A DNA stretch of 64,000 bases from NCBI GenBank assembly GCA_030390025.1, contig CM059431.1:129768001-129832000 (forward strand), read 5' to 3'. Positions 1-35,469 of this stretch are shown one piece after another. Origin of the DNA: Squalus acanthias (lineage: Eukaryota). The position numbers were made by a program, and so were the translations under genes. The stretch's first letter is position 1. Each line of letters starts with the position of its first letter. Under the pieces are notes generated by a model. It made no database searches and was not told the DNA's origin. It worked only from the letters and a program-made list of their open reading frames with translations.

Positions 1-433
1 TTCCATTCCTTGTATTGATTTAGCAGAGACTGTGGGGGCTGCACTCTGAGCTCTTTGCCTGGTACTCTCCATTGTTCTTTCCAGCACATTTGATGTGCAA
101 GTCTCTCCAGGCCGAGATTCAAGGCTGCAATGAGTAGGATGTGGATGGAAAGCAAGATTAACCATCCCTTTTAAGAACTGGCCCGTGCCATTGTGTGTGT
201 GTTCCATTGCTGACTGACAGTACATGAGCTTCGCCAGCGCTCTGAGTTAGCGCCTCACTCCTCGGCCTTTGCGCCTTAAGACAGGTGTGCAGCGCCTGAT
301 TTAGCGCTCCAATCACCTCCAGGGGCGTTAAAAGTGAAGTTTCCAGTCAGTGGCGATAATTAGCGCCAGGCGCTAATTTTTGCGCCCGGACGATATTTGC
401 GCCCCAAACGGGGCGCGACTGAATTTTTCCCCC
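1..433. mobile_element. Right part of a non-autonomous Harbinger-type MITE (same family as 29373-30237), inserted in a CR1
   Basis: Colinear with 29810-30237; ends in TIR ctgaatttttccccc; CR1 sequence resumes at 434. Confidence 0.8.
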
Positions 434-1740
434 TGAGTGTCTCCGCTTCCATCACTTCCATCAGCAGCGAGTTCCAGGTCCTCACCACTCGCTGCGTAAA
501 AAGTTTTTCCTCACATCCCCCCTGTATCTCTTGCCCACAACCTTAAATCTGTGTCCCCTAGTCCTTGTACCATTAATTAGTGGGAACAGCCTTTCCCCGT
601 CTATCCTATCCAAACCCGTCATAATCTTGTACACCTCGATCAAATTACCCCTCAACCTCCTTTGCTCTAATGAAAACAAATCCAGCTTCTCCAACCTGTC
701 CTTGTAGCTAAGATCCCCCATCCCTGGAACCATTCTGGTAAATCTCCTCTGCACCCTCTCAAGGGCCTTCACATCCTTCCTAAAGTGTGGTGACCAGAAC
801 TGGATGCAATACTCCAGTTGTGGCCTAACCAGTGCTTTATAAAGGTTCAGCATAACTTCTCTACTTTTGTACTCAATACTTCTATTTATGAAGCCTAAGA
901 TCCCATATGATTTGCTAACCACTCTCTCAATATGTCCTGCCACCTTCAGGGACCTATGCGCATTAACTCCCAGGTCCCTCTGTCCCTGCACATTCTTTAA
1001 AACTGTGCCATTAAATGTATGTTGCTTCTCCCTGTTCCTTCTGCCAAAATGCATCATCTCACACTTCTCTGTATTAAATTCCATCTGCCACTTGTCTGCC
1101 CATTCTACTAGCCTTTCTATGTCCTGTTGCAGTCGATTGGTATCATCATCACTGTTTGCCACACCCCCAAGTGTGGTGTCATCGACAAATTTAGAAATTC
1201 TACTCTGTATTCCAATATCCAGGTCATTTATATATATCAAAAAAAGCAGTGGCCCCAGCACTGACACTTGGGGAACACCACTGTCTACCATCCTCCAGTC
1301 TGAAAAACAGATATTTACCACAACTTGCTGTTTTCTGTCCTTAAGCCAATTCCTTATCCAAGCTGCCACTGACCCACCTATTACATGAGCCTCAATTTTG
1401 TTAACCAGCCTTCTATGTGATACTTTGTCAAACGCCTTCCTAAAATCCATGTAGACAACATCCATTGCATTCCCTTCATCAATCCTCCCTGTTACTTCAT
1501 CAAAAAATTCAATTAGTTTAGTCAAACAGGATCTGACTTTTACAAATCCGTGTTGGCTCTCCTTAATTAGCTTAAACCTATCCAAGTGCCTGTTAACTTT
1601 TTCCTTGATTATTGTTTCTAAAACTTTACCCACCACTGATGTTAAACTGACCGGCCTATAGTTACTAGGATTGTCCGTACACCCTTTCTTGAACAATGAT
1701 GTCACATTTGCCACTTTCCAATCCTCAGGCACTCCCCCAC
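434..1740 (-). mobile_element. CR1 LINE fragment, reverse transcriptase region of ORF2
   Basis: ORF 482-1939 contains PEDWKVANVT, NYRPVSLTSVVGK, YMDFRKAFDKV, GVPQ.SVLGP, KFVDD, RPQLEYC; its first ~65 aa are read-through into unrelated sequence. Confidence 0.95.
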
Positions 1741-2964
1741 ATCTCGGGAAAAATGGAGTGAGCAAGAGCCTTTCCACGAGGCAAGTAATGAGGTGTAATG
1801 TTACTGTATTTTTGTGCTTTTCCCAGCTGTAAATGAATGAACTCGCCAATAGCCACTGAGCTTCCGCTTCCCCTTCACAGGCGAGGTACCCGACCTCCGT
1901 CAATCCCATGCTCCTGCAGTAAAACTCAAAAACTGGCATTTAATTCAATATTAAGGATCTCTCAACAAGAAGTTAATGATTTCAATGAAGTCGACCACCT
2001 CTACCGATCGGGTCCATGTCATGCCTTCAAAGCTGCTCGAGTTAAATGCGCGAGGGGGCGGGATGACGGCGGGTTCCCGAAGCGCTCGCTATTTCCGGGA
2101 TTTTTACTGCTGACCCGTCCCCAAACCCGCACACTCGGCAATGGGAAAATTCCGGCCAAGATTTTCTACAATGATCGCTTCATTGCAGCTGTCAAAACAT
2201 CTTGCTTGTTAAAATGTAGTGGACAAGTGTAAACTATGTAGCAATAAAATATTCACATGGCTGTCATGTGTAACAAAAATGGTCTCTGATAAATACCTGC
2301 ATTTCATCTTTCAAGAGGTTAAAATTTGCATAAACCTAAAACCTTTTGTCAGTGAATATAAAAGGAACTAAAATAATTCTAGAAGTTTACTTAACCAACC
2401 ATGTAAGCATGCACTTTTTTGTGAAACATTTCAATAAATGGTCCTGATTACACTCAGCCAAGATGGTGACATGATATTCTTTCAAATTTGTTTGCATTTA
2501 CCGACATGTTATCATTAGGCAGTTTTCTCAGGCTGGTGGCAAAAATTTATCAAAACAAATCACTAACAATAAGTACTAAGATTTCGCATCGTGCAATTGT
2601 AATTTTTAACTTAAGAACATAAGAAATATGAGCAGGAGTAGGCCATACGGCCCTTCGAGCCTGCTCCACCATTCAATAAAATGATGGCCGATGTTTGACC
2701 ACAACTCCACTTTCCCGCCCGATCCCCATATCCCTTGATTCCCTTAGAGTCCAAATATCTATCGATCTCAGCGTTGAATATACACAACTGAGCATCCACA
2801 GTCCTCTGGGGTAGAGAATTCCAAAGATTCACAACCCTCTGAGTGAAGAAATTTCGCCTCATCTCAGTGCTAAATGGCCGACCCCTTATCCTGAGACTGT
2901 GCCCCCTAGTTCTAAACTCTCCAGCCAAGGGAATCTACCCTGTCAAACCCTCTCAGAATCATAT

Positions 2965-3615
2965 GGGGGCAAAATTGGGTCGCACCCCCTTTGGGGTGCT
3001 AACTTCGCCGGGGTACTACTTTTAGCACCCCGAAAAAGTTAGCGCCCCCGCGCCTGAAATTCACTGGTAGCGCCCCAAGAGGGAGGCGGGGCACTACTGG
3101 AAGCGCTCCCCCTCCCTCTTGGGGCGCTGCAAGTGAATATCGTGGCGCTATGTGCCGCGGTACTGCAGGCCTTCCTCCCCTTATTAAAGGGGAGGGGCCT
3201 AGCACAGCGCGACCCAGGGCCCAGCTGGGTCACCAGGGATCGGAGTGCTGGCGGGGGGGGGGGGGCTGCACAAGAGGCTGGGGACGGCAACAGGGGCAGG
3301 TGCTGGCAGGCGGCCAGCAACAAAAATGGCCGCCCGGCACCTCCCCTTTAGTTTACGCTGCCCTGGCCGCAGGTAGGCCCCCCTGACCCTGTCGGATATA
3401 TCGTCTGGTGGTAAGTCAGTGGGCGCTACTGAAGATCGCGGCCGGGGCGCTGCGCATGGCGATGACGTCATCGCCGGAGGCACAGCGCCGCGGGGCGCTA
3501 ACGGTACCACCACCGCTAACCTCCCCCTGAATTTCGCGGGAGGCGTTCGCAGCACCGCACCCGGGCGCTAGTTGGTTTGCGTCCCGTTAGCGCAAATCAA
3601 CCAAATTTTTCCCCC
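2965..3615. mobile_element. Non-autonomous Harbinger-type MITE, 651 bp
   Basis: TIRs gggggcaaaatt / aatttttccccc; TSD TAT on both sides; many TAGCGCC/GGCGCTA subterminal motifs. Confidence 0.85.
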
Positions 3616-6663: not shown

Positions 6664-6910
6664 ATGATGGCAGATTGCCACCCCAGGGAGAGAGCCCAGA
6701 GGTTTTCCGATGAAGCTTTGGAGGCATTGATTTTAGTGGTGGAGAGAAGGCAGGCGGTCCTGTACACGCCAACTGGCAAGGAGGCTCTCGACACAAGTCT
6801 GCCGGACTATGTGGAGGGAGGTGGCACACCACGTCACAGGCAGTACTGTGGTCCCCAGGACCCACACACAGTGCAGGAAGAAGTTTAACAAGCTCACACG
6901 GGTGATCAGG
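6664..6910 (+). pseudogene. Myb/SANT-like DNA-binding gene exon 1 of H1 (frameshifted)
   Basis: RERAQRFSDEALEAL...WREVA...RTHTQCRKKFNKL followed by a gtgagt donor. Confidence 0.8.
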
Positions 6911-7325
6911 GTGAGTGAAGGCTTCAACAAATGCTCCATACCACCATCTGTACCACAAGCTTCACACACTGCTCAATGCACCACACCCCCAACACTCACC
7001 CATCAACAATCTCTACCTAGCAACACTCACACCCACATCTCACACCTTGCACATAATGACAGCTATTCAACTATGGCAGGCACAAAGGTCACTAGTTATT
7101 ATAATTCATGTGATATGTTTATAGATAAATTTATTAATGGTGTTTGGAATATTTTATGGTCTCTCTCATTTCACCTTTGCACCCAGGAGGATGCTGTGAT
7201 ATGGCGTGAGACAGGGATTGTATGATGGGGATGTGGTGAGCTACGGGGATCTGGGGTTTCATTCATGCGAATCGGAGTCTGATGAGCCGGTCATGGACAG
7301 CCTGTCCGGAAGGCCGATTGTCTCG

Positions 7326-8397
7326 CTAACTCTGCCCTCCCTCTTGTTCCTTATCCTCCTCGTCCTCCTCCTTGTCGTCCCCTTCCTCCTCATTCTCCTC
7401 CTCTGCCTCGTCGTCCTCCCGAGGTGGTCCCACAATCCCTGCTGGCAAGGGCTGCACCCTCATGATGGCCAGGTTGTGGAGCAAGCAGCAGACCACCACG
7501 AAATGGGACACCCGCTCTGGCAAGTACTGGAGGGCTCCTCCTGAGCGGTCAAGGCAGCAGAACCGTTGCTTCAATAGGCCGATGGTCTGCTCAGTGATGT
7601 TCCTGGTAACAGCATGGCTCTCATTATATGAGTGTTGGGCATGAGTGTTGGGGTTGCGGAGGGGAGTCATGAGCCAGGTGCAGCGCGGATAGCCCTTGTC
7701 TCCAAGTAGCCACCTGCGAGCTTGACGTGGTGGCTGGAAGAGTGCTGGCACACCAGTCTGACGCAGGATGAAGGCATCGTGGCTGCTGCCAGGATAGTGG
7801 GCATTGACATTGAGGATTCGCTGTGTGTGGTCGTACACCAACTGCACATTAAGTGAGTGGTAGCCTTTGTGGTTACAGAAGACCTCAGCATTGTTATGCG
7901 GTGCCCGCAAAGCCACGTGGGTGCAGTCAGTGGCGCCCTGCACCATTGGGAAGCCCGTTATTCTGGCAAAGCCACACTCACGCTCGTCCTGCTTCTCTCT
8001 GGTGATTGGGAAGCCAATGTAGTACCTTCTCCTACTGTGTCCTCCTCAGTGACCTCCCGGATGCAGTGATAGATGGCAAACTGTGAGATGTTAGCTGTGT
8101 CTCCTGTTGCAGACTGGAAGGATCCACGGGCGAAGAAATTGAGGGCCATGTGACCTTACTGCCACTGGGAGGCTGGAGGTCTGGTTGCAGGAGGTGGCAG
8201 AGTTCTGTGACCAGCTCCTTGGTGAAGTGGAGCCTCCTCAAGTGATGTCAGAAGACCCTAGATGAGTTAGGCCTCCTGTTGAGAGTCCTGATAGCCCTCC
8301 TCCTCCCTTTGTGCACATGTTCCCGTCTTTCTCGCTGCCTCCGCTCCCTCTGCTGTAGATCCTGGAGGGCGAGGTCAACTGCCGGTACAGCCCCCAT
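7326..8397 (-). pseudogene. Harbinger DDE transposase (HARBI1-family) of H1, frameshifted
   Basis: [39 protein letters not shown] motifs and acidic C-terminus. Confidence 0.92.
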
Positions 8398-10160: not shown

Positions 10161-11750
10161 ATGGGTGCTCTAGTTGTCATCCCCCTTGGCCAGCAACATG
10201 AAAGGGAGATGGAGCAGAGGCAGCAGAGAAGAGGACAAGCTGCTCGCTGGAGGAGGAGGAGGAGGGGGAGAAGGCCTCTCAGCAGGAGGCCTTACCCACC
10301 TTGCGTCTTCCGAGAGCAATTCTCTTACCTCAGCCTGAGCCAGGAGCAGTGTGTGAGGCGTCTGCAATTTATGAAGGAGGTGCTCACAGAACTCTCACCA
10401 GGGCAAGGACAGCACTGTCAGTGGCTGTGAGGGTGACAGTGGCCCTGAATTTCTTTGCGTTGGGATCCTTCCAGGCTGGAGCAAGCGACATCTGTAATAT
10501 CTCGCCGTTCACTGTCCACTGCTGCATAAGAGAGGTGAGAGAAGCTCTTTATGCCAGGAGAGTGGATTTCATTGCCTTCTCTCTGACCAGACAGAAGCAG
10601 ACGGAGCATGCACATGGCTTTGCCAGGAGAGCGGTCTTCTCCATGGTGCAGGACACCATCGACTGCATGCACGTGGCTTTGCAGGCACCGTATATAAATG
10701 CTGAGATGCACCACAATCGTAAAGGTTACCACTCACTGAATATGTAGTTGGTGTGCGACCATGCCCAGCATATCGTGATGGTGAATGCCCAGTATCCTGG
10801 CAGCAGTCATGATGCTTTTATTCTGCGCCAGTCTGCTGCTACCTCAGTCTTTGAGCCGCCAAGACAAACCAGAGGGTGGCTACTTGACAACAAGTGCTAT
10901 CCCTTGACCACCTGGCTGTGGCTTAGTTGGTAGCACCCTCGCCTCTGAGTCAGAAGGTTGTGGGTTTAAGTCCTACTACAGAGACTTGAGCACAAAAATC
11001 TAGGCTGACACTCCAGTGCAGTACTGAAGGAGTGCTGCATTGTCAGAGGTGCTGCCTTTCAGATGAGACGTTAAACCGAGGCCCTGTCTGCTCTCTCAGG
11101 TGGACGTAAATGATCCCATGGCACTATTTCAAAGACAAGTTCGGGAGTTATCCCTGGTGTTCTGGCCAATATTTATCTGTCAATCAACATCGCTAAAATA
11201 GATTATCTGGTCATTATCACATTGCTGTTTGTGGGAGCTTGCTGTGTGCAAATTGGCTGCTGCGTTTCCTACATTACAACAGTGACTACACTTCAAAAAG
11301 TACTTCATTGGCTGTAAAACACTTTGGGACATCCAATGTTTGTGAAAGGCGCTCTATAAATGCAAGTCTTTCTTTTATGACTCCGTTTCGCAACCCAACC
11401 ACACGTGGGCAGCATGCATACAACACGAGCCATGCTGCCACACAGAACATCATAGAGCAGATCATTGACGTCCTGAAACTACATTTCCACTGCCTGGACC
11501 GCTCTGAAGGAGTCCGACAATACGCACTGGATTGTGTGTCCCGATTTGTCGTGGTCTGCTATATCCTCCACAACCTGGCCAGCATGAGGGCATAGCCCTT
11601 GCCAGCAAGGATACGGCCACCATCTCAGGAGCAGGAGTAGGAGGAGGAGGAAGAGGAGGATGCAGAAGAGGAGGAAGCAGAAGGAAGGAGGCAACCCAGA
11701 CAGCCCCTTTCTGGCCAGGATATCCAGGATTGAATTATCCGCCTGCGGTG
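10161..11750 (+). pseudogene. Harbinger DDE transposase of H2, interrupted by a SINE
   Basis: VTVALNFFALGSFQ, IDCMHVAL, PGSSHDAFIL, IIEQIIDVLK, LHNL in broken frames. Confidence 0.9.
10915..11376 (+). mobile_element. tRNA-derived SINE with Deu-type central domain
   Basis: A/B-box-like head tggcttagttgg..ggtttaagtcc; core gatgagacgttaaaccgagg..gatcccatggcactattt; TCTT tail; second copy at 63532-63990. Confidence 0.85.
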
Positions 11751-12412
11751 CAAGTGAATGCAACCCCAATTCCCCATTCAACATTATTCCCACATCTAAC
11801 CTTTCCTCTGTTACTGACTATCACAGCATCATCTTGGTCACAATGCTGAAATAAAAGCCACCAGAAAGCAAACTTTCCAATCAAACTTTAACCATATATC
11901 CATCAATATTACAACAAAAATTCAATTAATCACCCTTGTGCATTCCCTTAGTGACTGTTTTGCATGTGCCTTTGCCTATTTTAGTGCTCCTACGTAGTGC
12001 TACCCCAGTGACTGCAGCATGGCTGGTGGAAGGCTGCTGACTTTCAGTGGGGGAGACTGGAGAACAGTGGCATAGTGGTAATGTCACTGGGCTAGTAATC
12101 CAGAGGCCTGGACTGATGATCAGAGACATGGGGCTGGATTTTGTTATTGGGGGTGGGTTGGGGGCGGGTCAGGTGGTCAGCGGGTCCCGCCCCCGCCTCC
12201 GATGTGAGGCAGGATAATTTAGCGATTTTGCCCTAATTGGGCACTTGATTTCCAGCGTGTGGGAACCCCTGGCCCAATTAGTCTTTTGGTCCTGAAACTC
12301 GCCTCTGATGACGTCATCTATGCAGTTGCATTTAAGGCCTGCAAGCAGCCTTGGTTCATTTTCTGCCTTACAATCTTTTTACTGAGACTTCTGAGGGATT
12401 AGTGGTGCAAAC

Positions 12413-14338
12413 ATGGTAAGCTCAAGGTCCAAGTCTGCACCCCGCTTTGATGGACTCCTCTGGTGGAGGGAGCAAGAGCTCATAAGGAAGTGCTGTTTCC
12501 TTCTGCTGGGAGGAAAAAACCTCCCCAGCAGACCAAAGCTGTGTGGCTGCAAGTGGCACAGGAGGTCAGTGCCATCTCAATGTGCAGCAGAACATGGCTG
12601 CAGTGCAGAAAGAGGTTTCATGACCTTCTCCGCACAGGAAAAGTGAGTATTCCATCACCATGACCCTCAATCTGTTCCCCATCGCCTCTCATCCCCAGCA
12701 CTCTGCATTGCCAACCTCCTCCTCCACATTCCACTTGACCCTTACATCCCTGCACCCTTAACCATTCCCTCTCTCTCTATGTACACATTCACTTAACTAT
12801 TCGACTATGCAGCCCTCGCACTCCCTATCACTGTTATGCTATGACAACAACTTACAACACACAGGGAGGGCCCTTGGTCTTGGGACCTCACTCCATCTTT
12901 GTGTCCTTCTAAGCATCGATGCTATGGATTCTCTACACTCACTGCTTCATTCTCACTCAAACTCCACTTGTGTCCCTCATTGCAGGAAAAGAGAGTCCAC
13001 AATAAGAGGGAAAGGGCAGAGACAGGAGGAGGGCCACCCTCAATAGCCCAGCTCACCAGCACAGAGGAGGCGGCCCTCGAGATCGTGCGAGTCAAGGAGG
13101 ATGCGCAAGTGGGGGACGGACAGACGGGCGCATCAGAGCAAGCTGATGACAGAATAGTTTTCCATCTCTCTATTTGACATTGCATGAGTGGCTGATATTG
13201 ATTCTGATGCTCTAACAGATTGACTTATGATCATCTGCACAATTCCATGTGCATGCAACGTTTATCTCACATGTCTAACTCTGTCCTTTACTCCCCTACA
13301 GGACCATCCACAGCCCCCCTCACCACTGTCCAGGAGGAACAGCCTGAGCCACAAGACTCCTCAGAGGAATCTGCAACCTCTGAGGGTGCAGCGTCACCAG
13401 AATTAAGCACACCCAGCACCAGCGCAGACACTCACACCTCGGTGGGACCTTCGGGACATAGAGTAGTGTTGTCACCTGGTGTATCACAGCTCACAAGTGA
13501 GCATCAGCAGATGGTGGAGACAGGGACAGCAGTGGAGAGTCCTCGTCGGAGGGCGCAGATCACTCCCAGTTGCATGTGGATCCAGAAAGAGAGCAGTGCT
13601 GGAACTCCAGGAACAGGTGCAGGAGTCTCTGGCAGGTTTTGGCTCCAGGGTCACTGCGAGTGTGGAGCGGATGGAGGAGTCCATCTCTAACATGAGCAGT
13701 GCCTTTGTGGAGGCAATGGCGCATGAATGCATCACCATGGAAAGGATGGCAACCTCCGTGGAAAGGATGGCTACGGTAGAGGAGAGGATGGCTACGGCCA
13801 TGGAGGAGCTAAGTCGCCAGAGTGTTGAAAACATGATCATTGTTCAGAATAGACTGACAGCTCTGGAGAACGATGGACAGCTATTGAGCAGAGAAACCAG
13901 AGCTTCATGGAAGTCCTCTGGAGTAGGACTGCCAGTGCAGAAACGGGTCCTCATGGCCCCCCTGAAGTGCAGCAAGGTGCTGTCAAGCCACTTGCTAGCT
14001 CTGAAGTGGGCCTGACCCATGAGAGGGATGTTGGTGGCAGACAACAAGGAAGTGGGGGCTCCTCTTCAAGCACTCACACTTCCATGCCACTGCACAGCCC
14101 TCAGTCAGAGCCCCACCACAGTCCTCACCCAACTGAGATGGGCGTCTCATCCCCTGCACAGCCGCAGGAGCAGCAGACTGTTGGCGAGCCCTCACAGGCT
14201 CGCAACCCCAGAGGACGCCGGCCAAAGGTGTCGAGGCAGGAGCAGCATGAAAGTGAGCAAGGGGCCTCCACATCTGCTGAAGCCACAGGGGAAGTACCAC
14301 GTAGGAGCATGCGTAAGAGGAAGATAAAGCACAAGTAG
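12413..14338 (+). pseudogene. Three-exon Myb/SANT gene of H3 (exons ~12413-12642, 12986-~13144, 13302-14338)
   Basis: APRF..WLQVAQEV..RTWLQCRKRFHDL|gtgagt; tgcag|EKRVHNKRERAETGGG; ctacag acceptor; basic C-terminus; frameshifts present. Confidence 0.85.
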
Positions 14339-14596
14339 TCACAAGGGTAGTCACTTGGGTGTTCTGTTGTGTTTAATTGTGAAATGCCATCCGTGAATTA
14401 ATGTTATAAAATTACTTGATGGCAAACTGTTGAAGTTGTGGGCTGTGTCATTTCGCAAATGGGACTTCCACATTGAGGGCTCAGGGTGACTTGGAATTGT
14501 CAGTATGGTGGTCAGAGTGATAGGAAGCCGTAGGTTCTTGTCCATTGTCGATGGTGTGGTAAGAAGGTGAGAACCAAATGTGTTTGATTGGGCAGC

Positions 14597-15846
14597 CTAA
14601 GCAAATCTGGCCAAGATCAGTGCATCCCTTGCATCTTGGGCAGCAATGTTCTCGCGTGCTGCTGCCGCTGGTTGATGCACCTCCGCAAGCTCTTCGTTCT
14701 CGCTCTCCTCCTCCTCCTCCTTCTCATCCTCATCTGAGGAGGCTATGCGATGAGCCACTTGTACCGCAGGCAGCTGCAAGCCACGATGCTGTGCGCTGTT
14801 GTGAAGTGCACAGCAGATCACGACGATTCTGGAGACCCCGGCTGCTGAGTACTGCAGGGCTCCACCTGATCTATCAAGGCATCTGAATCGCAACTTCAGC
14901 AAGCCGATGGTTTGCTCGATAATGGATCTGGTGGAAATGTGGCTGGAGTTGTAGCGCTCCTCAGCTTCGTTGGATGGCCTCCTCAATGGCGTCATTAGCC
15001 ACGTCTTCAGGTGATAGCCCTTGTCTCCAAGTAGCCATCCGCAAAGTTGGTCTGGCGGACTGAAGAGCGGAGGCACACTAGACTGCCGCAGGATGAAAGA
15101 GTCATGGCAACTGCCAGGGTATTGGCGCAAACATGCAAAATTTCCTTACTGTGGTTACACACCAGCTGCACGTTGAGGGAGTGGAAGCCCTTGCGGTTGA
15201 CAAAAGTACCTGGATTGTGATGGGGTGCCTTAAGGGCCACATGTGTGCAGTCAACGACACCTTGCACCCTTGGAAAGCCTGCCAGATTAGCAAATCCAAC
15301 CGCACGCGCGGTTACACTTGCTTGACCCTTGGAGAAGTTGATGTAATTGTGCACGTTGGCAAAGAGGGCATCGGTTACCTGCGTGATGCAAGTGTGTGCG
15401 GCCGCCTGGGAGATGCCGTTGATGTCTGCTGTTGATCCCTGGAATGAGCCTGAAGCAAAAAAGTTGAGTACGGTGGTGACTTTCACGGCCACTGGTAAGG
15501 GGTGTCCACCCGCTCCAATGGGCTCCAGGTCTTGCTGCAGCATTGCGCAGATGTCACCCACTACCTCTCGCGAAAGTCTGAGCCTCCTCTGGCGCTGCTG
15601 CTCAGTCATGTTGAGGTAGCTCATCCTCTGTCTGTAAACCGTGTTTTGGGGGTATCTCCTGCGGCGATGTCCTTCGCTGCGCTGCCGCCTTCTGGCCTGT
15701 GCAGCTTCAGGTGGGTGAGCAGCAGGTTGGCGCTCCTGTTGTTGCTCCTGCTGTTGGTGCTGCTGTTGTTCCAGGTTCTGCTGCTGCTGCGGCTGGTCTT
15801 CATCCGAATCTGAGGTCCAGGAGAAAGGGAAATAAATGGTTCCCAT
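14597..15846 (-). pseudogene. Harbinger DDE transposase of H3, single frameshift near 15125
   Basis: Overlapping ORFs 15007-15846 and 14597-15130 give [38 protein letters not shown]. Confidence 0.95.
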
Positions 15847-17504
15847 GCTGCAGGTATATACCTCAGTTGAGGAAGCGCTCAGTTAAGGTGGGGAGAGGGG
15901 TTTCCCAGGAGGTCACAGTAGAGATAGATCTCAGCTTCAAAACTTGCAAAATCAGTAGGCATGCAAAAAGTTCTCCCAGACCTGAGAAAAGAAAGTTCTG
16001 CCAACTGCAAATGATCATTATGCAAAACTCCGTTTTTATGGTGGAGCTGCAGCTGTTAGTAAGCCATCCATTTGTGAACCCTACAGGATTAACTGGCGTA
16101 TTCCAGGGGAGCCGAGCAGCATGAGGGAATGTAGGAAACTCTGAAAGGCCTCTCAAAATGGCATTATAGAGGCACGTAAGTGGTTGTTAAGTGCTTTAAG
16201 GGCCTATCCCGCCTCTTGGAGGCGGGACCGAAACAGGGTCTGAAAGCCCGCATTTGGGAAAGTTGCTCAGAGGCGGGTTGGAGGCGGGATCGGCGGCCCG
16301 ACCCCATTTTTGGCAACTTTCCCACCTGACCCGCCTTCAAACTCGCCTCCTCGGGCCTGGCAAAATCCAGCCCATGAAGTTCAAATCCCATCACGGCAGC
16401 TGGGGAATTTAAATTCAGTTAATTAAATAAATCTGGAATTTAAAAAAAGCTAGTATCAGTAATCGTAACCATGAAACTATCGGATTGTCGTAAAAACCCA
16501 TTTGGTTCACTGATGTCCTTTAGGGAAGGAAATCTGCCGTCCTTACCTGGTCTGGCTGATATGTGACTCCAGACCCACAGCAATGTAGTTGACTCTTAAC
16601 TGCCCTCTGAAATGGCCTAGCAAGCCACTCAGTTGTAACAAACCGCTACGAAACAAAATAGTAAGAATGAAACCGGCATCGACCTCAGCACCGGCTACGG
16701 ACACAGCAACGGTATACCCAGCCCAGTCAACCCTTGCAAAGTCCTCTGCACCAACATCTGGGGATTTGTGCCAAAATTGGGAGAGCTGTCCCACAGACTA
16801 GTCAAGCAACAGCCAGATATACTCATACTCACAGAATCATACCTTTCATCCAATGTCCCAAACACCTCCATCACCATTCCTGCGTATGTCCTGTCCCACC
16901 GGCAGGACAGACCCACCAGGGGTGGCGGCACAGTCGGGAAGGAGTGGCCCTGGGAGTCCTCAACGTTGACTCTGGACTCCATGAAGTCTCATGGCTTCAG
17001 GTCAAGCATGGGCAAGGAAACCTCCTGTTGATTACCACCTACCGCCCTCCCTCAGCTGATGAATCAGTGCTCCTCCATATTGAACACCACTTGGAAGAAG
17101 CACTGAGAGTAGCAAGGGCACAGAATGTACTCTGGGTGGGAGACTTCAATGTTCATCACCAAGAGTGGCTCGGTAGCACCACTACTGACCGAGCTGGCCG
17201 AGTCCTGAAGGACATAGCTGCCAGTCTGGGCCTGCGACAGGTGGTGAGAGAACTAACACGAGGGAAAAACCTACTTGACCTCGTCCTCACCAATCTACCT
17301 GTCGCAGATGCATCTGTCCATGACAGTATTGGTAGCAGTGACCACCGCACAGTCATTGTGGAGACGAAGTCCTGTCTTCACACTGAGGACATCCTCCATC
17401 GTGTTGTGTGGCACTACCACCATGCTAAATGGGATAGATTCAGAACAGATTGAGCATCTCAAATCTGGGCATCCATGAGGCGCTGTGGGCCATCAGCAGC
17501 AGCA

Positions 17505-18818
17505 TACGAACATACGAATTAGGAGCAGAAGTAGGCCACTCAGCCCTTCGAGCCTGCTCCACCATTCAATAAGATCATGGCTGATCCAATTACTCCACAT
17601 TCCCGCCTACCCCCGATAACCTTTCACCCCCTTGCTTACCAAGAATCTATCTACCTCTGCCTTAAAAATATTCAAAGACTCTGCTTCCACCGCCCTCTGA
17701 GGAAGAGAGTTCCAAAGACTCACGACCCTCCTCATCTCAGTGTTAAATGGGCGACCCCTATTTTTAAACAGGTGTCCAAAAGCTTGGTGGAAGGTGGGTT
17801 TTGAGGAGCATCTTGGAGAGTGAGGCCAAGAAGTTTAGGGAGGGAATTAATCCTATCTCATTGCACAATACCAGGTCTAGTATAGCCTGCTCTCTGGTTG
17901 GCTCCAGAACATGCTGTTGTAAGAAACTATCCCGAAAACATTCCATGAACTCCTCATCTATGCTACCTTTGCCCATCTGATTTTTCCAGTCTATATACAG
18001 ATTAAAATCCCCCATGATTATCGCCGAACCCTTCTGACAAGCTCCCATTATTTCTTCCTTTATACACGATCCTACCATGTGGTTACTGTTAGGGGGCCTG
18101 TACACCACTCCCACAAGTGACTTCTTGCCTTTATTATTTCTCATCTCTACCCAAACTATTTCTACATCCTGGTTTCCTGAACTTAGGTCATCCCTCTCTA
18201 TTGTGCTAATACCATCATTAATTAACAGAGCCACCCCTCCACTTTTTCCCACCTTCCTGTCCTTCCTAAATGTCATGCACCCTTCAATATTCAGGTCCCA
18301 ATCTATGTCATCCTGTAGCCATGTTTCTGTAATGGCTATCAGATCATATTTCTTTATTTCTATTTTCGCTATCAGTTCATCTGTTTTGTTTCGCATGCTA
18401 CGTGCATTCAGATGCAGAGCCTTTAGTTTTGTCCTTTTATTATTTTTGTAACCTCTAGCCTTATCTGTCGATTTATTCTTAGATTTGTACTCTCTATCTC
18501 TTCCTGTCACGGTCTGTTTATCATTTCCCATATTAATACCTTTCTCTATTGCCTTGTCTCTAATCTTTGAATTACCACATCTTCCCAAATTTGATCCCAT
18601 GCCCCCAATATTTAGTTGAAAGCCCTCTCTACCGCCCTAGTTATACGACTTGCTAGAACACTGGTCCCAGCATGGTTCAGGTGAAGACCGTCCCAACGAT
18701 ACAGATCCCACTTTCCCCAGTACTGGTGCCAGTGCACCAGGAATTGAAACCCATTTCTCCCACACCAGTCTTTGAGCCACGCTTTCATCACTCTAATTTT
18801 ATTTACCCTATGCCAATT
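17505..18818 (-). mobile_element. Rearranged CR1 insertion: ORF1 esterase end + ORF2 endonuclease, ~75-bp L2-tail filler, CR1 3' tail
   Basis: WDGLHLNHAG (SGNH-type ORF1); NARSMRNK..ITETWL..YRPP..GDFN..LDL; duplicated AGCA at both ends. Confidence 0.85.
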
Positions 18819-21019
18819 AGCAGAATTGTATTCAACCACAATCTGTAACCTCATGGCCCGGCATAACCCTCACTCTACCATTACCATCAAGCCAGGGGAC
18901 CAACCCTGGTTCAATGAGGAGTGTAGAAGAGCATGTCAGGAGCAGCACCAGGCGTACCTAAAAATGAGGTGCCAACCTGGGGAAGCCGCAACACAGGACT
19001 ACATGCATGCTAAAAAGCGGAAGCAGCATGCTATAGACAGGGCAAAGCGATCCCACAATCAACGGATCAGATCAAAGCTCTGCAGTCCTGCCACATCCAA
19101 TCATGAATGATGGTGGACCATTAAACAACTAACGGGAGGAGGAGGCTCCATGAATATCCCCATCCTCAATGATGGTGGAGCCCAGCACGTGAGTGCAAAA
19201 GACAAGGCTGAAGCATTTGCAACCATCTTCAGCCAGAATTGCCGAGTGGATGATCCATATCGGCCTCCACCTGAGGTCCCCACCATCACAGAAGCCAGTC
19301 TTCAGCCAATTCGATTCACTCCACGTGATATCAAGAAACAGCTGAGTGCACTGGATACAGCAAAGGCTATGGGCCCCGACAACATCCCGACTGTCGTGCT
19401 GAAGACTTGTGCTCCAGAACTAGCCGCACCTCTAGCCAAGCTGTTCCAGTACAGATACAACACTGGCATCTATCCGACAATGTGCAAAACTGCCCAGGTA
19501 TGTCCTGTCCACAAAATGCAGGACAAATCCAATCCAGCCAATTACTGCCTCATCAGCCTACTCTCAATCATCAGCAAAGTGATGGAATGTGTCATCGACA
19601 GTGCTATCAAGCGGCACTTACTCACCAATAACCTGCTCACTGATGCTCAGTTTGGGTTCTGCCAAGACCACTCAGCTCCAGACCTCATTACAGCCTTGGT
19701 CCAAACATGGACAAAGGAGCTGAATTCCAGAGGTGAGGTGAGAGTGACTGCCCTTGACATCAAGGCAGCATTTGACCGAGTGTGGCATGAAGGAGCCCTC
19801 GTAAAACTGAAGTCAATGGGAATCAGGGGGGGAAAACTCTCCACTAGCTGGAGTCATACCTAGCACAAAGGAAGATGGTTGTGGTGATTGAAGGTCAATC
19901 ATCACAGCCCCAGGACATCGCTGCAGGCGTTCCTCAGGGCAGTGTCCTAGGCACAAACATCTTCAGCTGCTTCATCAATGACCTTCCCTCCAACATAAGG
20001 TCAGAAATGGGGATGTTTGCTGATGACTGCACAGTGTTCAGTGCCATTCATAACTCCTCAGATAATGAAGCAGTCCATGCCCGCATGCAACAAGACCTGG
20101 ACGATGTTCAGGCTTGGGCTGATAAGTGGCAGATCACATTCGCGCCACAGAAGTGCCAGGTAATGACTATCTCCAACAAGCGAGAGTCTAACCACCGCCC
20201 CTTGACATTGAACGGCATTACCATCGCCGAATCCCCCACCGTCAACATCCTGGGGGTCACCATTGACCAGAAACTTAACTGGACCAGCCACAAATACTGT
20301 GGCAACAAGAGCAGGTCAGAGGCTAGGTATTCTGTGGCGAGTGTCTCACCTCCTGACTCCACAAAGCCTTTCCACCATCTACAAGGCACAAGTAAGGAGT
20401 GTGATGGAATACTCACCACTTGCCTGGATGAGTGCAGCTCCAACAACACTCAAGAAGCTCGACACCATCCAGGACAAAGCAGCCCGCTTGATTGGCACCC
20501 CATCTACCACCTTAAACATTCAGTCCCTCCACCACCGGCGTACCGTGGCTGCAGTGTATACCATCTACAAGATGCGCTGCAGCAACTCGCCAAGGCTTCT
20601 TCGGCAGCACCTCCCAAACCCGCAAACTCTTCCACCTTGAAGCACAAGGGCAGCAGGCGCATGGGAACACCACCACCTCCAAGTTCCCCTCCAAGTCACA
20701 CACCATCCTGACTTAGAAGTATATTGCCGATCCTTCATCGTCTCTTGTCAAAATCCTGGAACTCCCTACCTAACAGCATTGTGAGAGTACCTTCACCACA
20801 CGGACTGCAACGGTTCAAGAAGGCGGCTCACCACCACCTTCTCAAGGGCAATTAGGGATTTGCAATAAATGCTGGCTTTGCCAGCAATGCCCACATCCCA
20901 TAAACGAATTAAAAAAAAGACTGCAGATGGCCTTGCAGGATGACCTCAAGGAGCTCTGGGCCTAGGAGGCCCAGCTTTGGACTGCACCACCTCAGTATGG
21001 GCAGCAGCAGTCTGGGCTG

Positions 21020-22527: not shown

Positions 22528-25144
22528 GTGGGAGGACGAATGCTGTCATCCTGAGAGAGGACAGCAGGGTCGTCCTCCACAGATGCATTGCCAGTCCCCA
22601 GGGGCAACGCCAAAGCAATCCTAGTAATCTGCTGGCGTACAGACTGCTGGACTGCTGTGACACCCTGCAAGCCCTTTTCAACACTGGTAAACCCACCATG
22701 ATGGCAGCAACCTGTGGTTGCATGACTTCAGTCTGAGCTTCCATTGCAGCACTCAGACGTTGGGTGGCTTCTGCTTGTGTCGAAATGGAAGCTAAGACTT
22801 CAGCCATCAGACGCAGCATGATGGCTGGGTCCACACGTGCTTTAATGGATCTGCCCAGCCCTTCCACGCTGGAAAGGATGGGCTCCAAGCTCTGCACAAA
22901 GCCCTGTGCAAGGCTGGAGCTGGACTCCTCCATGCTTGACATTGAATTTAGGCTTTCTGGCAGGCCTGCCAATGCACCAAGCATTTCATTGTGCATACCC
23001 ATCAGCGTTCCTCATAGGCCACCCCATCGAGGTCTTCATCTGAGTCCTGTGCAGCAGAGCCCATGTGCGACCTCGTCCTCCAGTGAGCTGGCACCTGAGC
23101 TACCCCTGTCCCCCTGCCCTGGCTGCAGGCCACTCGTGCCTGGTGTCTCACCATGTGCAGAGCCCGCGTCTAACCTATCCTCTAAAATGCGTGTAGTGTC
23201 AGTATCTGAGCTGGTGGCTGGGAGTGTGAAATCGAGTGACGGTGTTTCTTCATCTTCTTCTTCACTCTCCTCTCCCTGTTGTTGTTCGGCCACTGGCTTC
23301 GCAGGCTGGATTTCTTGGATGTATGAAATGAGAAAGGCACAAGAGTAGGGTTGTGGTGAGGGGAGTGGGGAAATCAAGAGCTGCATGCTTACACCATGTG
23401 CAGATTGTAAATCAGAAGAGATTGTGGGATGACGGGGAAGTGGGATGTGAGAAGGAGGATAACGTATGAGGATACCGACATCTTGTTTTCCTTCAGCCCT
23501 GCCACTGGCCGCGAGCTCAGCATGCCCCTGCCAAGAATGGCCAGCACCGTCTCCTGCAACGGGGTGAGGTGATGCAAGCGAGCCTGTCCCCCATCGGTTA
23601 AGGTCTGCTGACATCTGTTATGCGCCACCTTTTCCTGCAAGAGAAAGGGAAGTGTGTCAGTGAGTGTGGTGCAATTTGTTTGGGTGATGTGCCTGTCATG
23701 GTTGAATAGCTGACAGTGTGTTCAAGCTGTGAGATGTGGGTGTGAGCTTTGCAGCAGTGGTAAATGTATGCTGGTGAGGTGCAGCTATGAATGTGAGGTC
23801 TGAATCGTATTTGGTAGCGATTGTTGGTCGGTGAATAATGTCGGTGTAGTGCAGTGTGTGAGGCTAGTTGTGCAGATGGTGGGATATGGCATTTGAAGAT
23901 GAATTCCTTGACATTGACCATGCATGTGAGGTCATTAAATCTCTTCCTGCACTGAGTCCAGGTCCTCCCGGCTGTACTGCTGGCATTGGCCACATTGGCT
24001 ATCTGCTCCCACTGCAGTCTTGTCCGTTGCCTTGAGGGCCTCCCGGTCCCCTGTGAGAACAGGACCTCTCTGCTGGAGTTGACCTCCTGGACTAATGCCT
24101 CCAGTGCTGCATCGGAGAACCTTGGAGCCCTTTCTCTTGCCTGTTGCGCCATTACTCAGTCGTCTTTTTATGACAGTAGCCTCCACAAGCACTTCCAGCA
24201 CCTGTTGCAGGTAGAATGCACCTCCCCTTTAAGAGGTGCAGACTGCCTTTACATTGTGTACACTAGCTTTAATTGGAGCTAGCCTCACACAAACTTGGGC
24301 CCCCCTGCTGAGTGTTCAGCCACTCAGCAGCGCGTTCAGCGCTCGGCTGAACACTACAATCATGCAAAGATGCAAGCAGCATGAATTTTACATGCTGCCT
24401 GCAGTCCTCCAAACGGGCGGGGGTTGCTATCGCATCTCTGCGCCTGTTTTCAGGGGCTACCGAATTTCTAGGCCATATGTGAGGAGACAAACAGACAGAC
24501 AGAGAGAGACAAGCAATGAGTCAGACATAAAAAGTCAGATAGTGTGAAGATGAATGAGCGTGAGAGATACATGCAGTGTCTGAGATAGTACATGAGAAAC
24601 ACGTCCTGTGTCACACCTCAGGCATGACATCTTAAGCATTACAATTGATATGCAAATTTTATATGACGCACCCAATGTAAGTCTGGGGATGAGGGAGAGA
24701 AGAGCAAAATAGGGGTTCGGGGTGATCAGCAGTTTGGGAAGGAAAGAAGTCCGGGACAGAAGATGCCTACCCTTTCCTTTTGGGGCCCGAAGGAGCACTC
24801 CTGCTCCTCCGTGCCCCAGAAAAGAAAGAAATGCGCTTACCTCGAGGGGCCTCTTCTCCCGATGATCATCCTTTGGCCTGCTTTAGCCTGACGGGAAAGC
24901 AATTTGGTCCCAATGATGTCATCAGGACCTGATCTGCAGATTTAAAGAAGGATCCCCCAGCTTCCACCAGATGTCCTTGGTGCCTGAAATTTAAAACTGC
25001 ATTCAGCGAGATTGGGGTGAGATGCCAAGCAGGTAAGTCTCTCACTCCATTTTAACTGCCTCTGGCCAGAAGGAATTAAAATTCCCCTCAATTAATCAAA
25101 AAAGCTGAACCAATCAGGTCGCTCATATTTTTAGAAAATCCTTT

Positions 25145-34439: not shown

Positions 34440-35230
34440 AAAAAATTCTCTGGATCTGGGTGTCACTGCCAAGGCTGGCATTTATTGCGCATCCCTAGTT
34501 GCCTTGAGAAGGTGGTGTTGAGCCTTCATCTTAAACCGCTGTAGTCTGCATAGTGTAGGTGCTCCCAAAATACTTAGAGGTAAGGAGGGCCAAGACTTTG
34601 ACTCAGCGACAATGAAGGAACAGCCACACATGTCCATGTCAGGATGGTGTATGACTTGGAGGGGAACTTGGAGGTGATAGTGCTCCCATGCATCTACTGC
34701 CCTTGTCCTTCTAGGTGGTGGAGGGTTAGGAGGTGCTACTGAAGAAGCTTTGGCGAGTTGCTGCAGTGCACCCTGTAGATAGTACATACCGTCGCCACGG
34801 TATGCTGATGGTGGAGGGATGGATGTTTAAGCCAGTGGATGGTGTGCAATCAAGCAAACTATTTTGTCCTGGGTAGTGTCGAACTACTTGAGGGTTGTTG
34901 GAGCTGAACAATTCCAGGCAAGTGGAGAGTATTCTATCACACTCCTGACATGCCTTGTAGGCGATAGAGAAACTTTGGAGTAAGTGCTGCTTGATAGCAC
35001 TGTTTACAAATCCTTCCATCACTTTGCTGATGATTGAGAATGGGCTGATGGGGCAGTAATTGGCTGGTTTGAAGTTGTCCTGCATTTTGTGGACAGGACA
35101 TGCCTGAGCAATATTCCGCATTGTCAATGTTGTAGCTCTACTGGAACAGTTCAGCTAAGGATGCAATTAGTTCTGGAGCACAGGTTCTCAGTACTGCAGT
35201 CAAGATATTGTTGGGGCGCGTAGCCTTTGC
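34440..35230 (-). mobile_element. Old deleted copy of the 12060-20917 LINE family
   Basis: ANYCPIS..IISKVMEG peptide and the same 3' tail. Confidence 0.8.
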
Positions 35231-35469
35231 TGTGTCCAGTGTACTCAGATGGGAGGAAGCACATTGTAGCAATTATATTCCAATGTTTTCTCTTGTATTG
35301 CTTTAGTTATTCTTTGATGGAATATTCTAGAGTGTCTGGAAATAAAAGCAGCTAGCTATTAGCAGACCAATTTGAGCACTTATTTGGACGAAACAGGATA
35401 ATCAGGTACTGGCTGTCATGCATTTCCATCTATTAAAGTACTTCCAACACCAGTAGAAAATTTGGTGGG

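Follow-up and report, generated by a model that had tools for sequence, protein, structure and literature searches.

Does a coding retrotransposon exist that is read from end to end by polymerase III (Pol III)? On the usual view, LINEs are transcribed by polymerase II and SINEs by polymerase III. Pol III is stopped by T runs, a run of four or longer (T4+) serving as its terminator, and its transcripts, as a rule short, are neither capped nor polyadenylated. According to the part of Kojima 2018 (PMC5786205) drawn on here, SINEs are unable to encode protein, and polymerase II signals may conflict with Pol III transcription.

The question is raised by a stretch of the Squalus acanthias genome, hereafter the window (64,000 nt; GCA_030390025.1, contig CM059431.1, 129,768,001 to 129,832,000, forward strand). 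It holds a LINE of ~3.3 kb, a non-LTR retrotransposon with its own reverse transcriptase, whose single ORF of ~973 codons (endonuclease and reverse transcriptase) follows a tRNA-derived head. An earlier note on this DNA had reported that the sense strand of the element is free of T4+ runs and had read this as selection for passage of Pol III.

Parts of the window copy

The element and its relatives in the window comprise the following features.

12060–12130, plus strand: 5′ part of the tRNA-derived head and true 5′ end of the window copy (read from the sequence; same head in other copies)
12068–12078, plus strand: A-box-like TGGCATAGTGG, inside the 5′ head part
12131–16373, no strand assigned: foreign insertion, a PIF/Harbinger-like DNA transposon of 4.2 kb that is not part of the LINE (ends read)
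16374–16666, plus strand: remaining head, then SINE-like 5′ untranslated body (read from the sequence; other copies; Rfam)
16376–16389, plus strand: B-box-like GAAGTTCAAATCCC, inside the remaining head
16667–17504, plus strand: start of the ORF (first ATG at 16667) with an apurinic-type endonuclease domain (Exo_endo_phos_2, E 1e-14, 16671–17450)
17505–18818, minus strand: foreign insertion, a piece of a different LINE with an endonuclease ORF at 17767–18636 on the minus strand (family copies join 17504 to 18819)
18819–20852, plus strand: remainder of the ORF, with the reverse transcriptase domain (RVT_1 on both pieces; end coordinate approximate)
20853–20917, plus strand: 3′ tail common to the SINE forms, with a terminal A run (3′ ends of copies; SINE joints)
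34452–35248, minus strand: older relative from this LINE lineage, diverged to 78–80% identity (sequence match)
48243–50611, plus strand: second copy, 5′-truncated, equivalent to positions 929–3305 of a full-length copy (RVT_1 on 49121–50119)

The earlier note had placed the start of the element at 16377, which needs correction: the first 70 nt of the head lie at 12060–12130, and the head is split by the 4.2-kb transposon, not truncated. In L039, a full-length natural copy, positions 15–76 match 12070–12130 of the window at 96.8%. The transposon sits between the A box and the B box of the head. Its ends are terminal inverted repeats, GGGCTGGATTTTG / CAAAATCCAGCCC, with ATG on either side; it encodes DDE_Tnp_4 ORFs on the minus strand (14600–15145 and 15010–15882; Pfam), and contains 10 T4+ runs on its plus strand. 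As for the second insertion, the joint from 17500 to 18819 is present in all four sequencing runs (Logan contigs), and four bases at the join fit either side. The frame of the window copy is broken, leaving ORF pieces at 19111–19860 and 19848–20708; RVT_1 is found in window ORFs with E values of 7e-12 to 1.6e-34 (Pfam).

Target-specific insertion of the LINE into a SINE was considered and rejected, since the A run at 20917 is not followed by a second tail and the truncated copy at 48243 is not preceded by a head or body.

The head, the family, and its short forms

In most of the 30 copies displayed, the sequence leading up to the B box is GGGAACGG-TAGCGTAGTGG...GAGTTCAAATCCC, with TAGCGTAGTGG and GAGTTCAAATCCC conserved across copies. 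The naming of these head motifs as A and B boxes is our assumption, made from the general box consensus sequences. The Rfam tRNA model scores 22.3 bits against copy L011, below the gathering score of 29; the match covers the D arm, the anticodon arm, a 22-nt variable insert, and the T arm, and the acceptor stem falls outside it because the alignment covers only model positions 7–64. ARAGORN finds no tRNA in the head, and neither ARAGORN nor Rfam at gathering thresholds finds anything in the whole window. Folding of the head is no better than that of shuffled sequences (z -0.42) and yields no cloverleaf.

Full-length copies of the element begin where the head begins. Thirteen of 29 share one 5′ terminus (reference positions 29–35), which lies 7–8 nt before the A box, and none of the 29 reaches further upstream; the remaining 16 are cut at scattered points inside the head. 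All 40 scored genomic matches cross the junction between head and ORF, at 90–92% identity to the window copy. The earlier note's view that the element is no accidental chimera is supported by both the junction and the shared terminus. A first look at the genome gave at least 8020 candidates for the junction and at least 5960 and at least 6236 for two probes lying within the ORF alone. Contiguous full-length copies were recovered at 12 of 39 fetched genomic places, and the copies are dispersed, with unrelated flanks.

At the level of the family the ancestral ORF is intact: frame 0 has no majority stop over core columns 333–3252 and stays open to ~65 nt before the 3′ end. None of the 13 aligned copies is individually intact. 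The frame was taken from the alignment columns, without a consensus sequence, and all shuffles described below were made on natural copies; the 13 copies represent one young burst and are not independent. In copy L072, the open frame contains RVT_1 at E 1.8e-39 and continues into another LINE, to which the endonuclease domain scored there belongs.

SINE forms of the element, consisting of head and tail without the middle, were seen as joints of 16605–16643 to 20805–20844. These joints were read from Logan contigs of four runs, which are uninformative on starts, ends, strand, and expression.

Avoidance of T runs on the sense strand

The absence of T4+ runs described in the earlier note is confirmed for both copies. 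The element's own sequence (16377–17500 plus 18820–20917), at a T fraction of 0.20–0.22, has none, against 14 runs of four or more for A, 8 for C, and 8 for G; all 10 T4+ runs within 16377–20917 sit in the nested insert (17500–18820). The untranslated body and remaining head (16374–16666) are AT-rich, yet their T runs are no longer than three. The second copy likewise has none, against 11 (A), 10 (C), and 7 (G).

The same holds across the family. Seven of the 12 full-length copies have no T4+ run, and in L041 and L048 the sole run falls within 75 nt of flanking sequence that had been added upstream of the copy. In the 13-row alignment, runs of four or more present in over half of the copies number 0 for T, 15 for A, 11 for C, and 9 for G; for runs of three or more, the corresponding numbers are 7, 46, 52, and 36. 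Across 40 loci, with 113,142 bases aligned, T4+ runs number 13 against 556 for A, 339 for C, and 306 for G (0.11 per kb against 4.9, 3.0, and 2.7), and 29 of the loci have no T4+ run at all. None of the T4+ runs is ancestral; the 13 are private to copies.

Other LINEs of the same genome differ sharply from this pattern, with 72 T4+ runs in 16,116 nt over 16 ORF pieces (about 4.5 per kb), a density about forty-fold higher than in the family. Even an L1-like ORF matched in T content (20.8%) contains 9 over its 3918 nt. The earlier note's own control, an 'ordinary CR1 at 434–1740', remains valid once the strand is corrected: its reverse transcriptase ORF lies on the minus strand (485–1939), and this 1455-nt sense ORF contains 12 T4+ runs. 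An RVT_1 scan of the genome listed 150 places, from which came the L1-like family, represented by L070 and L071, and L072, an additional copy of the tRNA-headed family; the other controls are ORF pieces in fetched loci. Of 73 ORFs of at least 130 aa, 64 were submitted to Pfam; the 9 omitted were overlapping frames on L066, L064, L072, and L037 together with two L001 ORFs that duplicate the window. All controls belong to distant LINE lineages (22–40% protein identity where matched), with no close headless sister among them.

How unusual an absence of T4+ runs is depends on the null model. Mononucleotide shuffles expect 4.2–4.6 runs, with a probability of none, P(0), of 0.009–0.015; dinucleotide shuffles expect 1.5–2.5, with P(0) of 0.05–0.22. 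Synonymous-codon permutation of the ORF expects 1.6–2.7, and in the 10 of 13 copies without a run in the ORF P(0) is 0.03–0.16; the codon-shuffled controls suggested in the earlier note thus make a weak test, since 3%–16% of shuffles have no run either. T runs of three or more are depleted against synonymous shuffles (5–9 observed, 11–15 expected; P 0.000–0.019). A shuffle that keeps both the protein and the dinucleotide counts expects 6–10 such runs, matching what is observed, and only 0.3–1.0 T4+ runs, so that the absence of T4+ runs is fully explained by avoidance of TT. The depletion sits at the level of TT, and there is nothing specific to runs of four. C runs of three or more are likewise scarcer than dinucleotide shuffles predict in all three sequences tested (P 0.003–0.026), and run statistics are therefore not clean for every base.

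TT is avoided most strongly where a T ending one codon meets a T starting the next (T/T), a place where only synonymous choice is at work. Between 7 and 13 such borders are observed against 20–28 expected, and no more than 1 in 2000 shuffles gives so few; the depletion appears in all five family tests (P <= 0.0005) and in none of five control LINE ORFs (P 0.13–0.999). In the matrix of border pairs T/T stands at 0.32–0.43 and T/C at about 1.0, and hence border depletion is not a side effect of CpG loss. The avoidance extends to the codons and the protein: CTN is favoured over TTR for leucine, phenylalanine (2.3%) is the lowest in comparison with 43 homologues (2.6%–8.0%), and F+L+I+V+M together (24.0%) are likewise the lowest (25.9%–34.3%). 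The complementary dinucleotide is hardly affected, with an odds ratio of 0.95–0.98 for AA against 0.71–0.73 for TT, and family TT odds ratios of 0.59–0.92 compare with 0.82–1.45 in the 16 other LINE ORF pieces. These comparisons support an avoidance of T runs that is specific to both the strand and the family.

Proposed Pol III read-through, its alternatives, and related elements

The reading that we favour, with a probability of about 0.55, is that Pol III reads through the whole 3.3-kb element and that sense-strand T runs have been purged for this read-through. Pol III would initiate at the internal A/B-box promoter in the head, as on the SINE forms that share it, and the transcript would start with the tRNA-derived head. 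With the lineage purged of sense-strand T runs, the polymerase could then run 3.3 kb to the 3′ tail, and transcription would end where the 3′ flank first offers a T run. The purge would be visible as fewer phenylalanine and leucine residues, as CTN in place of TTR, and as the rarity of T-ending codons before T-starting ones. What stands of the earlier note's case for selected read-through is the avoidance itself, specific to strand and family and felt at codon borders; that Pol III makes the full-length RNA, and that termination avoidance is the selective cause, we infer from the sequence. The 973 codons might be translated from the Pol III transcript despite its missing cap, or else from polymerase II transcripts made occasionally. 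The fullest version of this reading is more tentative, with the odds somewhat against it: an autonomous coding retrotransposon with a full-length Pol III RNA and a terminator-free, reshaped ORF, which would be the parent of its SINEs by repeated internal deletion.

Selection against terminators of four or more Ts alone would not obviously deplete TT itself, and a second explanation, which we consider less likely, starts from composition. The element would be a polymerase II element of a lineage in which TT is scarce through codon, amino-acid, or mutational bias, or through other selection on the RNA, such as avoidance of U-rich motifs that act in instability, splicing, or protein binding. On this account the tRNA head would do something else, or would have come along passively through a template switch. 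This account fits the lack of a four-run-specific signal once dinucleotides are preserved, and the shortfall of C runs. The closest protein relatives (31%–37% identity) are also somewhat low in phenylalanine, at 3.0%–3.4% against a median of 4.2%, a hint that part of the shift may predate the family. It keeps its share of the probability because the controls lack a close headless sister lineage. It is opposed by the fact that none of the 16 other LINE ORF pieces shows TT avoidance and by the concentration of the depletion at T/T borders, nor does it predict that TT avoidance should coincide with a Pol III-type head and a 5′ end at the tRNA start.

Improbable, by comparison, is a head that serves as a processing signal, with the element co-transcribed by host polymerase II and cut by RNase P at the 5′ side of the head, giving a precise common 5′ end as with the self-cleaving ribozymes of some LINEs. 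The shared terminus at the tRNA start agrees with this, and 5′ ribozymes in RTE, R2, and other LINEs are noted in the part of Kojima 2018 (PMC5786205) used here; however, the Rfam match leaves out the acceptor stem, the head folds no better than its shuffles, and no avoidance of T runs would be expected, though it is observed. Chance—a T-poor 3.3-kb sequence that happened to lack TTTT and passed this on to its copies—is less probable still, for although expected T4+ counts are small (1.5–4.6 by null model) and the copies are not independent, it is contradicted by the depletion at codon borders, the shortage of T runs of three or more, and the contrast with other LINEs.

Were Pol III read-through correct, a LINE with a SINE-type head and a 973-codon ORF cleared of Pol III stops would blur the division between LINEs and SINEs, and would be a natural example of a long coding RNA made by Pol III. 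Its SINE family would have been born from a Pol III-driven LINE, not by addition of a head to a LINE tail, offering a concrete one-step route to SINE heads, bodies, and tails. Avoidance of T/T at codon borders, combined with the lowest phenylalanine content in comparison with 43 homologues, would provide a simple sequence screen for further such elements.

Among known systems, the element resembles tRNA-derived SINEs (SINE2) in its tRNA-derived head with A and B boxes, its copies that start at the head, its CR1-type LINE tail, and its lack of internal T4+ runs, and short forms with its own head and tail exist as contig joints. It departs from them in being neither short nor non-coding: at ~3.3 kb, it has an ORF for endonuclease and reverse transcriptase downstream of the head, and the family frame is open over 973 codons. 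In its general features, the pairing with short forms may resemble that of HE1 and HER1. HE1, an elasmobranch V-SINE, is tabulated with its partner LINE HER1 in Ohshima 2013 (PMC3747384; consulted in part).

SINEs whose bodies combine 5′ and 3′ pieces of LINEs appear, alongside bipartite non-autonomous LINEs, in the portion of Kojima 2018 (PMC5786205) used here. As in the element's short forms, a 5′ region and a 3′ tail of an autonomous LINE are combined, consistent with internal deletion. In that portion the contributors are of the RTE and Vingi clades only, a small-RNA head is absent from the autonomous LINE, and template switching is thought to have supplied the SINE head at a later stage; in the present family the head is already part of the autonomous element. 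No account of an autonomous LINE headed by a tRNA-derived sequence turned up in a literature search with coverage outside subscription journals. R1/R2-type LINEs depend on transcription of their rRNA gene targets (PMC5786205, same portion) and, like the element as proposed, borrow a polymerase other than polymerase II; they are target-specific and co-transcribed, whereas the element is dispersed and has its own internal promoter-like head.

With CR1/L2-type ('stringent') LINEs, the element shares an ORF with Exo_endo_phos_2 and RVT_1, a defined 3′ tail copied by SINEs, and variable 5′ truncation. Unlike them, it has no room for an ORF1, and a small-RNA-derived head replaces the polymerase II promoter region; its sense strand, unlike the CR1/L2-like pieces sampled, avoids TT and T runs. 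By its Pfam domain pattern it may be called CR1/L2-like; its best full-length protein relatives are 36%–37% identical. In the older relative at 34452–35248, which is 797 nt long, a single T4+ run is present and the TT odds ratio is 0.89.

The tRNA-headed LINE family

Window copies and associated insertions (window positions)
12131–16373, PIF/Harbinger-like DNA transposon (4.2 kb), between the A and B boxes of the LINE's tRNA-like head
16377–20917, +, single non-LTR retrotransposon copy
16671–17450, +, endonuclease domain (Pfam)
17505–18818, −, fragment of a different LINE, splitting the window copy
19111–19860 and 19848–20708, +, reverse transcriptase (Pfam)
34452–35248, −, older relative of the tRNA-headed LINE (78%–80% identity)
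48243–50611, second family copy, 5′-truncated

The window copy only appears truncated at 16377: 12060–12130 holds the initial 70 nt of its head. The intervening transposon has inverted ends GGGCTGGATTTTG / CAAAATCCAGCCC with ATG flanks on either side and encodes DDE_Tnp_4 ORFs at 14600–15882 (−). Further DDE_Tnp_4 ORFs occur at 7329–8045 (−), 11197–11592 (+), 38029–38439 (−), and 62039–63077 (+), and Myb/SANT-like ORFs at 6737–7222, 23601–24155 (−), and 35833–36186. The older relative carries, on its own strand, a run of ten T after the 3′ tail in place of an A run.

Within the 3.7-Gb host genome, a probe of the head–ORF junction (16377–16900) found at least 8020 first-look candidates, and each of the 40 scored spans the junction, with 90%–92% identity to the window copy; ORF-only probes found at least 5960 and 6236. 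Upstream of the window copy's apparent start, GGGAACGG-TAGCGTAGTGG-...-GAGTTCAAATCCC recurs in most of the 30 copies displayed. The Rfam tRNA model aligns to the head with D, anticodon, and T arms and a 22-nt variable-region insert, at 22.3 bits against a gathering threshold of 29, and ARAGORN called no tRNA in it. An identical 5′ terminus, 7–8 nt before the A-box-like motif, is reached by 13 of 29 copies, and none of the 29 extends upstream of it; the other 16 end at various positions within the head, the window copy among them owing to the transposon insertion. Aligning the window copy with 12 contiguous full-length copies, taken from 39 fetched, gives 13 rows in which one frame lacks a majority stop across 973 codons; none of the 13 has an intact ORF. 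On this evidence an accidental chimera, against which the earlier note had argued, is excluded, and the head is part of the transcript of a source element that was once coding-competent.

At a separate locus (L072, G000:C3445:267600–271600, minus strand), an open frame of 971 aa is itself chimeric: around 755 codons of the tRNA-headed LINE ORF lead in frame into another LINE's endonuclease region, with a separate RT ORF downstream. The flank of another family copy (L029, 2735–2780, +) contains a match resembling the histone 3′ UTR stem-loop (Rfam RF00032, 25.5 bits against a gathering threshold of 34).

Avoidance of T runs on the sense strand

The absence of runs of four or more T (T4+) from the sense strand, which the earlier note had read by eye, is confirmed: neither the window copy's own 3.2 kb nor the second copy contains one, and the longest T run is three. 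At family level the observation is strengthened, with 29 of 40 loci free of T4+.

Sense-strand runs by base (T, A, C, G)
13-copy alignment, runs of 4+ in more than half of copies: 0, 15, 11, 9
13-copy alignment, runs of 3+ in more than half of copies: 7, 46, 52, 36
40 loci (113,142 aligned bases), runs of 4+: 13, 556, 339, 306

How far this departs from chance depends on what is held constant. Mononucleotide shuffling gives 4.2–4.6 expected T4+ (probability of none 0.009–0.015), and dinucleotide shuffling gives 1.5–2.5 (0.05–0.22). Synonymous-codon permutation, the control proposed in the note, run on natural copies with the frame set by alignment columns, gives 1.6–2.7, with a probability of none of 0.03–0.16 in the 10 of 13 copies lacking an ORF T4+; this comparison is underpowered and alone not convincing. 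A shuffle retaining both protein and dinucleotide counts gives 0.3–1.0 (0.33–0.68 in the same 10 copies). A run length of four carries nothing special.

The avoidance is seen in shorter runs. ORF runs of three or more T number 5–9 against 11–15 expected under synonymous permutation (P 0.000–0.019), and the family odds ratio is 0.71–0.73 for TT and 0.95–0.98 for AA. The comparison set comprised 16 ORF pieces of other LINEs from the same genome (16,116 nt: an intact 1306-aa ORF2 from an L1-like LINE, thirteen endonuclease/RT/esterase pieces lying in the fetched loci, and two window pieces), all distant, at 22%–40% protein identity to the family where a match was found. These hold 72 T4+, or 4.5 per kb, and their TT odds ratios span 0.82–1.45; the L1-like ORF matches the family in T content (20.8%), yet has 9 T4+ in 3918 nt. 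The element called an ordinary CR1 at 434–1740 in the note retains its contrast, with 12 T4+ in a 1455-nt ORF, but its sense strand is the minus strand: an open frame of 485 aa, in which RVT_1 is found at E 4.7e-31, lies at 485–1939 (−), and the element is therefore antisense on the plus strand.

TT observed/expected by codon position (family; L1-like ORF; 13 other LINE pieces)
Positions 1–2: 0.91; 1.21; 1.58
Positions 2–3: 0.84; 0.93; 1.01
Between adjacent codons: 0.55; 1.55; 1.11

T-ending codons precede T-starting codons (T|T) 7–13 times against 20–28 expected, a count matched in at most 1 of 2000 permutations in all five family tests, and no such depletion occurs in five control ORFs (P 0.13–0.999). 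Loss of CpG was rejected as the source: T|T stands at 0.32–0.43 with T|C at about 1.0 (T|A 0.76–0.87, T|G 1.54), and an equal CpG deficit in the 13 other LINE pieces comes without T|T depletion. Leu is encoded by CTN in 69 of 78 cases and Phe by TTC 18 times versus TTT 5. The protein has the lowest Phe content (2.3% versus 2.6%–8.0%) and the lowest F+L+I+V+M content (24.0% versus 25.9%–34.3%) in comparison with 43 homologous LINE proteins, a set that leaves out five matches to host gene models holding an element fragment. Selection against T runs is well supported.

Shark gene models P0003, P0030, P0031, and P0039, including aldo-keto reductase-like and anoctamin-7-like models (Heptranchias perlo) and an LRRC32-like model (Pristiophorus japonicus), contain stretches 70%–86% identical to the LINE protein, probably exonised or mis-annotated LINE fragments. 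The L1-like LINE (L070, G000:C379:50600–55400) has endonuclease, RT, and zf-RVT domains in its ORF2, and its third codon positions are GC-rich (A3 7.5%), which sets it apart from the rest of the sampled LINEs. Ten of the places listed in an RVT_1 scan of the genome have open frames of 1306–1307 aa, which suggests that the family was recently active.

SINE forms and proposed polymerase III read-through

An autonomous LINE with a tRNA-derived head was not found in the literature searched. The shark HE1 V-SINE is listed with a partner LINE, HER1 (Ohshima 2013, PMC3747384), to which the present family may correspond. Kojima (2018, PMC5786205) gives LINE 5′ parts in SINE bodies for RTE and Vingi only and assumes polymerase II for LINEs.

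Contigs from four public sequencing runs (X1, X2, X8, and X17; four organism codes), which carry no expression information, join 16605–16643 to 20805–20844, so that head and 5′ body meet the 3′ tail directly at eight or more different junctions. The uninterrupted long form, 17500 joined to 18819, is present in the same runs. Internal deletion of the long element, occurring repeatedly, would account for these junctions, as would repeated short–long recombination; the several SINE forms that they define have the appearance of independent internal deletions.

In vertebrates, a run of at least four T terminates polymerase III, whose transcripts are uncapped. In the proposed mechanism, the head would serve as a polymerase III promoter in the SINE forms. 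The long form shares their head and 5′ end and has no stop signal along 3.3 kb, and both its synonymous codon usage and its amino-acid content shun T beside T on the sense strand only. Most simply, polymerase III would copy the entire element and terminate in the flank, and lineages bearing T runs would have been lost. That the avoidance extends to TT may be due to numerous weak stops summing along a long template or, alternatively, to a benefit in staying more than one mutation from a terminator. Protein might be made from uncapped RNA, or polymerase II transcripts might supply protein acting on polymerase III templates via the shared 3′ tail. Of the earlier note's claim of selection for read-through, the selection, against T runs, has held up, with read-through as the best candidate for its cause.

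A compositional habit of the lineage, unrelated to polymerase III, is less likely but a serious contender, because the effect sits at the dinucleotide level and the controls, all distant LINEs, include no close headless relative. That the head acts in processing through RNase P is improbable: the Rfam match lacks an acceptor stem, the head fold is unremarkable (z −0.42), and such a role predicts no T avoidance. Chance, excluded for TT, is the least credible explanation.
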